A stretch of 8,647 nucleotides of DNA, taken from the IMG/VR virus record IMGVR_UViG_2703718835_000006, positions 1 through 8,647 of that record; one strand, given 5' to 3'. The stretch comes from a virus. Lineage: Duplodnaviria > Heunggongvirae > Uroviricota > Caudoviricetes. Shown piece by piece: positions 1 through 3,361 of this stretch (positions are counted from its first letter, which is position 1; each line of letters begins with the position of its first letter). The notes under the pieces were generated by a model that was given only the letters and a program-made list of their open reading frames with translations, was not told the origin of the DNA and searched no databases. A program made the translations under genes and the position numbers.

Positions 1-549
1 TCAGCTAGCTGGAAACTTTTTATACAGAGTTGAGAGCCCTACTCCATACGTTTTTGATACGCTTTGTCGTGATTCACCGGTTGCCATCCGCTCCCCCATT
101 TCCCGCCATTGCTCATCCGTGAACTTAGGCCTGCGACCACCAACTCGCCCTTTTGCCCTGGCTACGGCCAGCCCTGCTAAGGTACGTTCGCTATTAAGAT
201 CAGATTCATATTGTGCTGCGGAAAGGATGTTACGAAAGTTATAGCGGCCGCTGGCTGTTTTGAGATCCACGCCATCGGTAATACTGCGGAAGTTGATACC
301 CTTTTCCTGTAACTGCTGGAACATCAACAGCGCATGCAGAACGTTGCGGCCTATCCTGTCCAGCTTCCAGACCACCAGTTCATCCCCCGGCTGCATAGTG
401 GCGATCAGCCGTTTTAGAACCGGCCGATTCGATTTCCTCCCGCTGGCATGCTCTTCAAAAATTTTCTCACAACCCGCTGACTTGAGCGCCGTTAGTTGCA
501 ATTCAGTGTCCTGGTGGTTTGTTGATACTCGGGCATAACCGTAAATCAT
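1..549 (-). CDS. Site-specific DNA invertase, serine recombinase of the Hin/Gin/Pin/Cin family (182 aa)
   Basis: From the internal Met the ORF reads MIYGYARVSTNHQD...VVWKLDRIGR...GRRPKFT...GVGLSTLYKKFP: the catalytic-serine N-terminus and C-terminal helix-turn-helix typical of Gin/Hin-type invertases (from memory of those sequences). ATG is at 547-549 (cat on plus strand) preceded by AGGAGA; TGA at 1-3. The ORF-track call to 594 starts at GTG and adds 15 residues not expected in this family. Confidence 0.93.
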   Translation of the reverse strand: MIYGYARVSTNHQDTELQLTALKSAGCEKIFEEHASGRKSNRPVLKRLIATMQPGDELVVWKLDRIGRNVLHALLMFQQLQEKGINFRSITDGVDLKTASGRYNFRNILSAAQYESDLNSERTLAGLAVARAKGRVGGRRPKFTDEQWREMGERMATGESRQSVSKTYGVGLSTLYKKFPAS

Positions 550-555
550 GGGATT

Positions 556-578
556 TCTCCTGTTATGAAAACAGGAGA
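556..578 (-). promoter_or_regulatory. Perfect 9-bp inverted repeat (tctcctgtt / aacaggaga, 5-nt spacer) overlapping the invertase Shine-Dalgarno
   Basis: Read directly: 556-564 tctcctgtt, 565-569 atgaa, 570-578 aacaggaga. On the minus-strand mRNA the AGGAGA ribosome-binding site, a few nt upstream of the ATG at 549, lies in one arm of the stem. Function is inferred. Confidence 0.3.
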
Positions 579-772
579 AACGGCGAAGCATCACCAGATT
601 TTTGATGGTTATAAAAAAGGTTGCTTTAAGATGGGCGTGGTCACCACCACATCATCAAAGTGGAACGCGCTGGGAGCGTACCGCTGCAGAATGGGGCATC
701 TCATTAAGCAGTTGATTACTTCCATTGCGAGTGATTCAATAGATATTGAAAATTCACCCGAAGAGAAAGAAA

Positions 773-1918
773 ATGCAAGGAAATAGAATTGACTTTGTCA
801 ATACTTTGAGAGGATTTGCAGCATTAGCCGTTGTTATTGCTCACTATACTGGTAATTTTTGGTCAATGCGAACAGCAGTAGCAAGTCTTACAAATGCTCC
901 TGAATTACCATCTGAAACATATGCTTGGCCTAGTTATCTTGTATGGCTCCATGCCTTCCCTTTGTTTAACTGGGGGGCTTTCGGCGTTGCTATATTTTTC
1001 ATCATTAGCGGGTTTGTCATTCCACTCTCGCTACAAAAAATGACATTTCACGGTTTTTTATTAAGCAGAATCATTAGAATAATACCAACATATATTATTG
1101 GTTTTACTATAACGCTTACAGCCATATTGATAAGCAGTAAATATTTTTCAGTGGAATGGCCATTTAATAACAAAGAAATATTGATTCACTACATCCCTGG
1201 AATCAGAGACTTGTTGTACTCCAGGAGCATTGATGGAATCATTTGGACACTGGAGATAGAAATGAAGTTTTATCTCATTTGCGCTATATTAATAGCAGTA
1301 TTTCGCAAGCACTCCATAAAAGTTTTCATTACCCCGCTTATTCTTTTTTTGTTTGCTCTCTATATTAACAAGGTTGCTCCTGAATGGATTAACTCCAATA
1401 TATCAGCATTCCATCTTGCCATGGCATACATGTTTTTTTCTCAGTATATTATTTATATGTTTATCGGAACCATGTTTTATTATATGTATTGTGGTTATAT
1501 AAATGCCAACAAGGCTTATCTTGGAATCGGCATATTATTTACTTTATTCTGCATTCTTTGGTGGGCTGGTCCATATTCAGCCAGTATAAATGTCGCCTGG
1601 AGCTATGCATTTGCGCTTTTGGTCTTTGCTTTTGCTTATGCTCACCCAAAATTATTTAAATCCAATAGGTTTTTTGATTTTTTTGCCAACATAAGCTATC
1701 CGCTATATATTATCCACGGGGTAGCTGGGTATGTCGCCCTTCGAATTTTACTTGAAATGGGGTTTAAAGCATGGGTATCTCTCTTAATTGTGACTTTTTC
1801 CATTATATTTTTGTCATGGTTAATACACATCTTGATTGAATCCCCTTCTCAGAGAGCAGGCAAGCGCCTCGTAGCTAAACGAGGTAGGCCATTAAAAAAA
1901 ACAGCGCAACCAACCTAA
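773..1918 (+). CDS. Acyltransferase family 3 integral membrane protein (OafA/Oac-like putative O-acetyltransferase of LPS/O-antigen or another surface glycan), 381 aa
   Basis: N-terminal RIDFVNTLRGFAALAVVIAHY motif (conserved Arg...His), FFIISGF motif, WTLEIEMKFY motif, C-terminal YPLYIIHG, and multiple hydrophobic segments, all typical of acyltransferase_3 proteins. ATG at 773 follows aagagaaaga; the ORF track's alternative start is TTG at 746. The gene body is strongly AT-rich (about one-third GC by eye) against about half GC in the flanking phage genes. Confidence 0.88.
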   Translation: MQGNRIDFVNTLRGFAALAVVIAHYTGNFWSMRTAVASLTNAPELPSETYAWPSYLVWLHAFPLFNWGAFGVAIFFIISGFVIPLSLQKMTFHGFLLSRIIRIIPTYIIGFTITLTAILISSKYFSVEWPFNNKEILIHYIPGIRDLLYSRSIDGIIWTLEIEMKFYLICAILIAVFRKHSIKVFITPLILFLFALYINKVAPEWINSNISAFHLAMAYMFFSQYIIYMFIGTMFYYMYCGYINANKAYLGIGILFTLFCILWWAGPYSASINVAWSYAFALLVFAFAYAHPKLFKSNRFFDFFANISYPLYIIHGVAGYVALRILLEMGFKAWVSLLIVTFSIIFLSWLIHILIESPSQRAGKRLVAKRGRPLKKTAQPT

Positions 1919-1958
1919 TAGATCTTATCAAGTAAAGGCAGCTGCTCTTATTATACAA

Positions 1959-1985
1959 GAGGTGCACTTTCTTCGAGTGCACCTC
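1959..1985. terminator. Candidate bidirectional terminator hairpin between convergent genes
   Basis: Perfect 9-bp stem gaggtgcac (1959-1967) / gtgcacctc (1977-1985) with a 9-nt loop, in the AT-rich gap between the acyltransferase (+) and tfa (-) stops. There is no strong U-tract on either side, so intrinsic-terminator status is uncertain. Confidence 0.35.
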
Positions 1986-2045
1986 CTCTGAAAAACAACT
2001 TTATAAAATTATTTTCATCGCCATATTATTCATTAATCACCCATC

Positions 2046-2438
2046 TTACGGAGTAATAGGCCAGCTAATCTCTGCATCAGTGTTAGCGTCAATCCTGCTC
2101 AGCAGCACACGGTATTGTTTCCACAGAGGCAACGTGGCGGATTCTGCATCTGTAGCCATACCCAGATCGACGGCATCCTGTAGCACACCAATTTGCTGCG
2201 TTGCTTCATTCATCAGCGAATTTTTCATAGCGAAGTTATTGGTAATTCGCAGTTGTTTTGCTGCTGCTAATTCTTCATCGGTCGGAGTTGGCGCACTAAA
2301 AACGCCATTGACGTAATGCCAACCGATACCCATACCTTCAGTAGAGAGAATGGCGCTGGCTGATTCAGGCCATTCTGACTTGCCATCCCAGATAACAATA
2401 TTTTCTACGATGCCATTTTTGATAATTGCATAGTTCAT
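2046..2438 (-). CDS. tfa: Tail fibre assembly protein (Tfa chaperone; Mu U / P2 G / e14 TfaE-like), 130 aa
   Basis: C-terminal region DLGMATDAESATLPLWKQYRVLLSRIDANTDAEISWPITP matches the conserved Tfa C-terminus (compare e14 TfaE ...NMATDEE...WERYSVLVSRVD...EWPEMP, from memory). ATG at 2436-2438 directly abuts the TAA of the upstream fibre fragment (2439-2441). Confidence 0.9.
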   Translation of the reverse strand: MNYAIIKNGIVENIVIWDGKSEWPESASAILSTEGMGIGWHYVNGVFSAPTPTDEELAAAKQLRITNNFAMKNSLMNEATQQIGVLQDAVDLGMATDAESATLPLWKQYRVLLSRIDANTDAEISWPITP

Positions 2439-2888
2439 TTACGCATACTCCATAACAATAACCACACCCGCAGAGCCATTACCGCCATTAACGTTTTGAT
2501 TTCCACTGATTGTTGCCGCGCCATTACCACCCGCACCATACCCACCAGGGCCAGAAATAAAGCTGCCGCCGCCAAGACCGGAACCTACAGTCCCTCCGAC
2601 TGCTGTTGGGGTTGCCATCACACCGGTTAGCCCGGCGTACCCGTTGCACAAAATGGCACCCACGGTCGAAGTGCCACCCTGACCGCCCATGCCACATGAC
2701 GCAGAGGAGCCTGACGCAGTGCAGCCGTTGCCTGGCTGGCCTCCACTTGCTGAGAGATAAGAGCCAAAAGTCGTCGTACCACCCTGCGTGCCATTGGTCA
2801 TCGTCGAGGCAATACCGCCATTACCACCCGCACCAATCGTGACAAGCACGGTTGATATTGCAGACAGGTTAAAGAGACCCCGTGCCAT
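2439..2888 (-). CDS. Tail fibre protein, C-terminal Gly/Ser/Thr-rich distal part (frameshifted fragment, 149 aa from ATG 2888)
   Basis: Low-complexity Gly-rich ORF (MARGLFNLSAISTVLVTIGAGGNGG...GNQNVNGGNGSAGVVIVMEYA) immediately upstream of tfa, in a different frame from the N-terminal fragment, with the break at the G11 tract. Probably not an independent gene. Confidence 0.65.
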   Translation of the reverse strand: MARGLFNLSAISTVLVTIGAGGNGGIASTMTNGTQGGTTTFGSYLSASGGQPGNGCTASGSSASCGMGGQGGTSTVGAILCNGYAGLTGVMATPTAVGGTVGSGLGGGSFISGPGGYGAGGNGAATISGNQNVNGGNGSAGVVIVMEYA

Positions 2889-3361
2889 TCCGCCGCCACC
2901 GCCCCCCCCCCCGCTGCGTTATAGTTTCCTGTGGAAGTTGCCCGGCCGCCGCCTCCACCGCCCCCAATAGCGATGACATCCGCGAACATTGCTCCGGGGG
3001 TTTTGGTGTAAGTGCCAGACGTCTTGATTATCTGCATGCCAATCAGACGACCGACTGCGCCGTTATTTACTAAACCAAGGTTTGTGAGAGCCGTAGAAAT
3101 CGCCGCTGCACCATCTGATTTGATATCGGCAAATGGGTTTGCACGGCTCAGTGTGAGTTTTTGAATGGCTTTTAAAACCTGAGTCATATCGTTAATGTCG
3201 AGCGCCAATCCTGCTGACTCTACGATATGCGCTAACTCTTCCTGCATGGCATTAAACGCTGCTGCCCGCAGCCTCGTTGCGGCAATACCACCAGCAACAC
3301 TTCCATCAGTATATTTGCCATCCTGCGTTGCAGTGGCTTCGACTTGCCCGATTCGGAGCAT
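2798..3361 (-). CDS. Tail fibre protein, N-terminal baseplate-proximal part (frameshifted fragment, 187 aa)
   Basis: ATG at 3359-3361 preceded by GAGG; lies between the DUF2313 gene and tfa, as the fibre gene does in Mu/e14-type modules. It runs into a poly-Gly stretch and then the G11 homopolymer; the last 38 codons overlap the C-terminal fragment out of frame. The intact gene would be about 307 aa (2439..3361). Confidence 0.7.
   Translation of the reverse strand: MLRIGQVEATATQDGKYTDGSVAGGIAATRLRAAAFNAMQEELAHIVESAGLALDINDMTQVLKAIQKLTLSRANPFADIKSDGAAAISTALTNLGLVNNGAVGRLIGMQIIKTSGTYTKTPGAMFADVIAIGGGGGGGRATSTGNYNAAGGGAVAAEWHGVSLTCLQYQPCLSRLVRVVMAVLPRR
2902..2912. repeat. Homopolymeric tract C11 (G11 on the coding strand) at the tail-fibre frameshift point
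   Basis: Counted directly: 11 consecutive C at 2902-2912. Translation shows that 12 G (or 9) would fuse the two fibre ORFs into one frame, giving ...AAGGGGGGGGMARGLF... Confidence 0.85.

Follow-up and report, generated by a model that had tools for sequence, protein, structure and literature searches.

An invertible segment beside a Gin-type invertase in an Escherichia coli prophage carries a single tail fiber tip on one arm and an acyltransferase gene on the other

We analyzed an 8,647-nucleotide stretch of viral DNA (IMG/VR record IMGVR_UViG_2703718835_000006, positions 1 to 8,647; hereafter the window). It represents the end of an Escherichia coli prophage that encodes the tail and baseplate, and within these 8.6 kb are a DNA invertase gene, an acyltransferase gene, and one tail fiber cassette. 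An earlier note on this DNA regarded the invertase as an apparent orphan, possibly the relic of a lost switch. The window carries a real inversion system, for which the crossover sites, the inversion itself, its exact joints, and two coding outcomes were all observed. We consider it very likely that this is a functional Gin/Pin-type system that switches a fiber ON or OFF and carries a polysaccharide-modifying cargo, not one that chooses between two host ranges. A fiber ON/OFF switch is favored over two host ranges because only one arm of the segment encodes a fiber tip and its chaperone.

The window was compared by megablast against 5,426 complete E. coli genomes, and an exact-protein look-up of the acyltransferase yielded thirteen contigs (comparison loci carry L numbers below). 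Both flanks of the segment (1 to ~630 and ~3072 onward) were 99.5–99.9% identical to many prophages with canonical segments encoding two chaperones. Matches H3–H21 and locus L003 have the same backbone and invertase, with a canonical two-chaperone segment between the same outer half-sites. The interior, 621–3083, had its match (99.5% identity) in a segment shared by two further genomes. The closed E. coli genomes L001 and L002 have the segment flipped relative to the fiber gene in a P2-like prophage, where it lies between a gpH annotated without its C-terminus and a recombinase gene. Loci L006 and L009 share the backbone and orientation of the window and encode an intact 307-aa fiber, and in L008 this backbone carries the segment in inverted form. 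Aligned to L008, window positions 1–628 (99.84% identity) and 3071–8632 (99.98%) match on one strand and 621–3078 (99.96%) on the other, with joints exactly at a central TT/AA dinucleotide; the two copies of the segment differ by no substitutions and by one indel, located in a run of C residues. A table of junctions across the loci showed that the inner half-sites GCTTTAAGATGG and ATTTACTAAACC always travel with the segment and that the outer halves, TTATAAAAAAGG on the invertase side and CTCTCACAAACC on the fiber side, swap exactly at TT/AA. Both orientations are represented, with conservative reciprocal joints at the core: the window, L005, L006, and L009 have one, and L008 has the other, as do L001 and L002 in their P2-like setting. 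Serine invertases, as studied in the Hin system, yield conservative reciprocal exchange at a 2-bp core (PMC3798978). The constant part of the fiber gene, which is 99.75% identical to that of L003, is joined to either arm in different assemblies.

These junctions define two inverted 26-bp sites with 12-bp half-sites and the same core dinucleotide (AA/TT), 26 bp being the known recombination site size (PMC3798978). Site A, in the fiber gene, spans 3065–3090 (ATTTACTAAACC AA GGTTTGTGAGAG; central dinucleotide 3077–3078), and site B, proximal to the invertase, spans 609–634 (TTATAAAAAAGG TT GCTTTAAGATGG; central dinucleotide 621–622). Between them lies the invertible segment of ~2.46 kb (621–3078, central dinucleotides included). 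The core of site A, AAACCAAGGTTT, is the sole exact AAACCNNGGTTT in the window, where by our own arithmetic ~0.02 chance matches are expected. Site A shares its 12-2-12 layout with Mu gixL (TTATCCAAAACC TC GGTTTACAGGAA) and gixR (TTCCTGTAAACC GA GGTTTTGGATAA), taken from the annotated G-segment boundaries in the Mu genome record. At this site, homology to L003 restarts at 3072 and homology to L001 stops at 3083. Site B is unrecognizable by itself, and its position was set by the comparative junctions; it lies 60 bp from the invertase start codon, the Mu equivalent being 55 bp. The canonical relative L003 has the sites TTATAAAAAAGG TT GGTTTAGGAGAA and TTCTCCCAAACC AA GGTTTGTGAGAG, with the same outer halves as the window.

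The earlier note had found no crossover sites by eye. Sequence searches of the window fared little differently: a strict search for the 26-bp consensus with three mismatches allowed gave no match, and a core search with two mismatches allowed gave only site A and chance matches. A generic repeat search was blind to the true sites, which it did not list, because sites A and B compared as inverted repeats agree at only 14 of 26 positions. The proposal that inversion could be judged by flanking inverted repeats of at least 20 bp is therefore unsound: the window contains no such repeat, yet the inversion is real.

The core dinucleotide of site A falls within Leu codon 95 of the fiber gene (…TALTNL|GLVNNG…). 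The constant N-terminal part, 95 codons including the junction Leu, lies outside the segment (3079–3361, minus strand). In the window orientation, it leads into a variable glycine-rich C-terminal part (2439–3076, minus strand; frameshifted in the window and in frame in relatives) and then the tail fiber assembly chaperone, a 130-aa protein (2046–2438, minus strand; PF02413 Caudo_TAP, 8.1e-22, with matches to PHROG tail fiber assembly families). The intact product of this arrangement is the 307-aa protein of L006 and L009, which in L006 matches PF21722 Gly_rich_2 (5.1e-10). In the flipped orientation, translations of L001 and L008 show the constant part followed by 30 codons (ALRWAWSPPHHQSGTRWERTAAEWGISLSS) and a stop, giving a 125-aa product. 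In window coordinates, these codons occupy 623–712 and the stop 713–715, within the leader of the cargo arm (623–772, plus strand). Inversion toggles between a complete and a truncated fiber. The same event alters the transcriptional context of the acyltransferase, putting its ATG 57 nt past the truncated fiber on the same strand; no terminator is predicted in the interval. The suggestion that a segment containing the acyltransferase inverts was right in that L008 shows this inversion; the segment also holds the fiber tip and chaperone, however, so the demonstrable change is in the fiber. The 30-codon stub is not a conserved fiber tip, because in a sister segment (described below) the stub is only ALR-stop, through a single base difference. 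The 150-bp leader had no match outside the cassette in E. coli genomes or phage records, and an origin as the remnant of an old fiber tip could not be shown.

In the window itself, the fiber is split into open reading frames (ORFs) 2798–3361 and 2439–2888 by a 1-nt frameshift in a C11 homopolymer (2902–2912; G11 on the coding strand). The window and L005, with C11, are both out of frame; L007 and L008, with C12, are in frame; L004, with C13, is again out of frame; and an interrupted in-frame allele, GCCACCACCACCC, is present in L001, L002, L006, L009, and L017. The variation could reflect slipped-strand ON/OFF switching at this tract, or it could be sequencing error.

The invertase gene (1–549, minus strand; ATG 547–549, stop 1–3) encodes a 182-aa Gin/Pin/Hin-type small serine recombinase with an N-terminal catalytic domain and a C-terminal helix-turn-helix. 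Its Pfam domains, Resolvase (3.6e-39) and HTH_7 (1.5e-09), are both full length; residues 1–181 align to residues 1–181 of Mu Gin (PDB 3UJ3; E = 1.4e-56); the catalytic Ser9 is kept within YARVST; and the PHROG match is phrog_125, DNA invertase (6.5e-75). The full-length domains, the end-to-end Gin alignment, and Ser9 bear out the view that the enzyme is intact, and its arrangement is indeed gin-like, with the 5′ end facing the fiber region as in Mu. At the DNA level, the gene is 99.7% identical to the invertase of phage HK225 and 94.8% identical to phi80 pinL. Matches in the phage collection cover the invertase gene and its upstream leader up to approximately window position 627, and the invertible segment itself had no match in that collection. 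Just upstream of the ATG, a perfect hairpin of 11–12 bp (554–580, minus strand, from RNA folding; dG −24.6 kcal/mol, z −5.1, equaled in stability by 0 of 200 shuffles) buries the Shine-Dalgarno sequence AGGAGAAA. The phi80 record annotates the equivalent of this hairpin as IR3, and it probably keeps translation of the invertase low.

In the mechanism that we propose, the serine invertase (1–549) would recombine the inverted sites B (609–634) and A (3065–3090), breaking and rejoining DNA at their identical central TT/AA so that the intervening 2.46 kb flips. The window orientation is the fiber-ON state, with the 95-codon N-terminus fused to the glycine-rich tip and followed by the chaperone. 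In the other orientation, the N-terminus acquires a nonsense tail of 30 codons, and the late operon loses its connection to the tip and chaperone. Mu, P1, and e14 have a second tip with its chaperone on the arm that the acyltransferase occupies here. We infer that this invertase, with Fis, is the catalyst, although other invertases could act in trans. Switching would probably be infrequent, because site B is degenerate and the ribosome-binding site of the invertase is buried in a hairpin. Inversion is supported by the intact invertase, full length against Gin, and by the retention of both inner half-sites across segments that carry either an acyltransferase or a family-9 glycosyltransferase (GT9).

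Several observations weigh against this fiber ON/OFF system. The half-sites of site B, AAAGG and AAAGC, fit the consensus AAACC poorly, and a site this degenerate may make switching slow. The two orientations come from different samples and strains, not from one culture. The window copy of the prophage may be defective, because its fiber is frameshifted. A consensus scan gave no convincing sigma-70 promoter that would start transcription ahead of the acyltransferase ATG. In the Gin/Hin family, where inversion depends on Fis and on negative supercoiling, a recombinational enhancer in the 5′ part of the invertase gene contains two Fis sites spaced ~48 bp apart; the literature consensus for Fis, GNNYRNNWNNYRNNC, has one match here, at 516–530, with no partner at that spacing even with one mismatch allowed. 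Finally, in helix E (window 226–240), the invertase departs from Gin, with N104, R106, and I108 in place of F104, H106, and M108. The Hin counterparts of Gin F104 and M108 are Phe105 and Met109, residues that control tetramer formation (PMC4513852), and that of Gin H106 is His107, the residue mutated in the activated Hin-H107Y (PMC4817059). Regulation in the subfamily of this invertase, with phi80 pinL and HK225, may differ from that of Gin and Hin.

Set beside known systems, the locus is closest in design to Mu G/Gin, P1 C/Cin, and e14 P/Pin. In all of these, as here, the gene for a small serine invertase adjoins the segment and points away from it; the two 26-bp sites have a 12-2-12 layout and an AAACC..GGTTT core; one site lies at the boundary between the constant and variable parts of the fiber and the other 55–60 bp from the invertase start; and a fiber tip and chaperone occupy an arm of the segment, the canonical two-cassette form being present in the relative L003. 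The present segment differs in that one arm only has a tip and chaperone, whereas the other consists of the 30-codon stub and the acyltransferase; in addition, Mu gixR is much less degenerate than site B. A host-range switch has two alternative fiber C-termini, each with its chaperone. Here there is one tip and one tfa (chaperone) gene, and neither the ORF list nor a Pfam domain search of the window revealed a second copy of either, as the earlier note had also concluded. It was likewise correct that only the acyltransferase gene (773–1918, plus strand) and a short leader, of 150 bp, separate the invertase from the fiber and tfa genes. Salmonella Hin/hix is alike in recombinase subfamily, kind of site, and inversion chemistry (PMC3798978). 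Hin flips a promoter, whereas here a coding junction flips; the Hin logic of toggling a surface antigen would be similar if expression of the cargo proves to depend on orientation. The P2 Z/fun hotspot has been described as mixed in purpose, often with an invertase and inverted neighboring genes (preprint 10.1101/2024.10.15.618418), and a systematic survey of programmed inversions lists fiber loci but not an arrangement with a cargo arm (PMC9881135). In the searchable full-text literature, the coverage of which is incomplete, we found no description of a non-fiber gene on one arm of a Gin/Pin-type segment.

The cargo gene (773–1918, plus strand) encodes a 381-aa membrane O-acyltransferase of the acyltransferase-3 family, with a full-length Acyl_transf_3 membrane domain. 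PF01757 matched at 1.5e-23 over residues 16–361 of the 390-aa ORF as first called from a TTG at 746, and the best PHROG was phrog_3333, O-acetyltransferase (1.4e-46, residues 1–370 of the 381-aa protein). The gene has a G+C content of 0.32–0.40 against ~0.53 in the flanks. The closest homologs outside E. coli, 67–70% identical, are chromosomal and lie in polysaccharide gene clusters. Those of L020 and L021 contain ManC, GDP-mannose dehydratase, a DegT aminotransferase, a PglD-like acetyltransferase, and an ABC-2 transporter, which are genes for GDP-mannose-derived amino sugars, and in L023 the homolog is surrounded by glycosyltransferases. These are probably O-antigen gene clusters. A protein search of phage records returned only ~24% identical acyltransferases, a scan of GTDB representative genomes only a 46% identical homolog in Candidatus Paracaedibacter, and PADLOC and NCBIfam assigned no specific family to either the acyltransferase or GT9. 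The protein is most probably a horizontally acquired lysogenic-conversion enzyme that acylates a surface polysaccharide. A 65% identical acyltransferase was also seen in Aeromonas veronii (L022, 5001–7879), at a moron slot by the portal and replication genes of a P2-like prophage; an IMS_C/DUF4113 (UmuC-like) gene comes next, with a flagellin gene after it.

Two kinds of prophage-carried acyltransferase offer comparison. The gene neaT of the CFT073 prophage phi-b0847 is a low-G+C PF01757 moron expressed by the lysogen in broth culture, and the construct used for its native regulation carried 211 bp of native upstream DNA (PMC3573123). Within its P2-like prophage, it is flanked by a chaperone gene (G/yfdK) and the sheath gene FI and lies on the strand opposite the tail genes; the present cargo has this slot in the P2-like copies L001, L010, and L011. 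Identity of the present gene with neaT was considered and rejected: similarity is at the family level only (BLASTP E = 0.15), and the CFT073 locus has neither an invertase nor crossover sites and is not invertible. In two P2-like copies (L010 4310–4457 and L011 ~2875–3022), the segment itself stands before the sheath gene with no invertase gene and with the left outer half TTCTTTGAAATG, which looks like a locked derivative. The O-antigen acetyltransferases of phages, such as Oac of Shigella phage Sf6, are also prophage-carried members of the Acyl_transf_3 superfamily, with a presumed role in modifying the surface polysaccharide that serves as a phage receptor. Unlike the present gene, Oac-type genes adjoin the integrase and att site, outside invertible segments.

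By analogy with neaT, the acyltransferase would be expressed independently in the lysogen. An extension of the fiber ON/OFF reading is that the cargo has no promoter of its own and is transcribed in one orientation only, such that the surface modification is phase-variable; we regard such orientation-dependent expression as possible but doubtful. Its transcription would come either from the late tail operon when the segment is flipped or, in the fiber-ON state, from a promoter on the invertase side reading across site B, and polysaccharide modification would be correlated or anti-correlated with fiber production. The flipped acyltransferase begins 57 nt beyond the truncated fiber, co-oriented with it and with no terminator predicted in the gap; this is consistent with the idea, as is the lack, in consensus scans, of a promoter with a start upstream of either cargo ATG. 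Two unrelated lipopolysaccharide (LPS)-type enzymes, the acyltransferase and GT9, moreover share one slot and one orientation, and both cargo segments are in the cargo-co-oriented state in the two closed genomes where they occur together. However, late tail operons are silent in lysogens, which would confine expression to lytic growth, where it has little obvious use, and neaT, in the same slot and with no invertase, is expressed in broth culture (PMC3573123). The scans of the acyltransferase and GT9 leaders, which found no usable promoter or terminator, had low sensitivity for promoters, and a weak extended −10-like element read by eye, TGaTTCAAT at 732–740, could act as an internal promoter. 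Tentatively, and with the same low weight, the invertase might couple phase-variable polysaccharide modification to fiber production, with one orientation giving virions with infectious fibers. In the other, the fiber would be silenced and the cargo would either come under the transcription that formerly served the fiber tip or go off an invertase-side promoter. At the convergent ends of the acyltransferase and tfa genes, a G+C-rich 11-bp hairpin (1959–1985, from an RNA fold of 1915–2050) is a possible two-way transcription stop; it has no T run after it, and the consensus scan did not call it a terminator.

Another resident Gin-family invertase could invert the segment in trans, with the adjacent enzyme inactive or differently regulated. 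The Gin, Cin, Pin, and Hin enzymes complement one another, and E. coli often has several invertases: a query made from L018 (its invertase gene, segment, and part of the fiber gene) matched in 1602 of 5426 genomes, in up to six places per genome. The changed helix-E residues 104, 106, and 108 and the buried Shine-Dalgarno sequence also point this way. Against it, the same invertase allele stands beside canonical two-cassette segments in many E. coli genomes, which argues for a working enzyme, and the ORF is unbroken and retains both the catalytic Ser9 and the helix-turn-helix domain. We therefore think it improbable that inversion depends on another enzyme.

It is very unlikely that the two orientations arose by independent insertion of the cassette either way, or through an assembly artifact. 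The cassette has clearly moved between unrelated backbones, and L008 is a short-read contig, both of which lend the idea some plausibility. Yet the window and L008 share one segment allele, free of substitutions, between 99.98% identical flanks, and flipped copies are present in two closed genomes. The sequence common to both ends in inverted orientation is only ~8 bp, by our reasoning far too short to mislead an assembler and too short to make homologous recombination or misassembly a plausible explanation. All joints, moreover, map to the central dinucleotide, as is characteristic of cleavage by serine invertases (mechanism in PMC3798978). That nothing inverts, and that the invertase was orphaned when a fiber switch was lost, like phi80 pinL, is hardly credible: near-identical invertases of phi80 and HK225 do adjoin attP with a tail-collar fragment or no fiber cassette, the window does lack long inverted repeats, and site B is degenerate, but 621–3078 is inverted with exact reciprocal joints in the same backbone, both orientations occur in several backbones, and the inner half-sites are kept in the acyltransferase and GT9 segments despite their different cargo.

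A second segment has the same layout with a different cargo. In three E. coli genomes, megablast matched a fiber tip and chaperone 88–91% identical to those of the window, and in the resulting sister segment (L017 2791–5019, L018 2791–5019, and L019 3508–5736) the tip and chaperone are 88.5% identical. In L017 and L018, which are P2-like prophages, the cargo slot holds GT9, a heptosyltransferase-family gene (PF01075 score 30.4 bits, above the cut-off of 22). GT9 has the same orientation as the acyltransferase and the same inner half-sites (GCTTTAAGATGA… and ATTTACTAAACC). The sister segment is fiber-ON in L017 and L018 and flipped in L019, an e14-like element with a truncated stfP in strains TUM14664 and 102651. 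The acyltransferase segment is likewise fiber-ON in a second e14-like backbone, in L004 and L007. Each cargo segment was found in both kinds of backbone and in both orientations. The acyltransferase segment behaves as a recently exchanged portable module that ends exactly at the crossover sites and moves across prophage backbones, because copies from three backbones differ by no more than 15 substitutions in 2.45 kb (at least 99.4% identity). Strains TUM14664 (L001, L019) and 102651 (L002, match H48) each combine a P2-like prophage bearing the acyltransferase segment with an e14-like element bearing the GT9 segment, with both segments flipped and each in the backbone opposite to that of other strains; this suggests that whole segments are exchanged between co-resident prophages at the crossover sites. 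In L013 (1–30), an outer half-site of a fourth kind, CATTCCCGGAAACC TT, adjoins the segment on its left, which implies yet another backbone, possibly with the constant region of its fiber joined in the flipped state.

Textbook Gin/Pin segments are host-range switches with two cassettes, whereas in the present segment, and in its GT9 sister, the second arm is an LPS-type modifying enzyme. Inversion persists nonetheless, and P2-like and Mu/e14-like prophages have exchanged the segment, the ends of which coincide exactly with the crossover dinucleotides. An apparently orphan invertase beside one fiber cassette is thus not to be dismissed as a relic, and a repeat search is the wrong test for it. 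Invertible segments can carry lysogenic-conversion genes and act as portable modules. Our hypothesis is that a prophage invertase may make both modification of the E. coli surface polysaccharide and fiber production phase-variable. If so, a receptor-binding protein and a receptor-modifying enzyme would travel as one invertible, horizontally exchangeable module bounded by recombination sites.

Read from the right, the genes of the locus are ordered fiber gene (minus strand), chaperone (minus), acyltransferase (plus), and invertase (minus). The remainder of the window encodes Mu-type baseplate genes, all on the minus strand: DNA_circ_N, GpP-like, Gp45, GP46, Baseplate_J, and Mu Gp48/YmfQ. An Rfam search of the window found no RNA families. 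Locus L005 (contig LONV01000007.1, assembly GCA_001576295.1) is 100% identical to window positions 1–7918, where the L005 locus ends, and in it the invertase is the final prophage gene and adjoins the host gene yciI. The phi80 pinL and HK225 invertases resemble the present one in DNA identity (94.8–99.7%), in the upstream IR3 hairpin, and in an att site at yciI. They differ in their surroundings, since phi80 has only a pseudogene fragment of a tail-collar gene beside the invertase and HK225 a hypothetical gene and dinI; unlike these two records, the present invertase has a working segment. Both (phi80, L015 4531–5317; HK225, L016 4501–5408; compare L005 4814–5777) adjoin attP and look orphan. 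The attP of HK225 is annotated as similar to yciI, which the prophage of the window likewise adjoins, and this att-invertase corner seems to be common to lambdoid phages and to a prophage with Mu-type tail genes.

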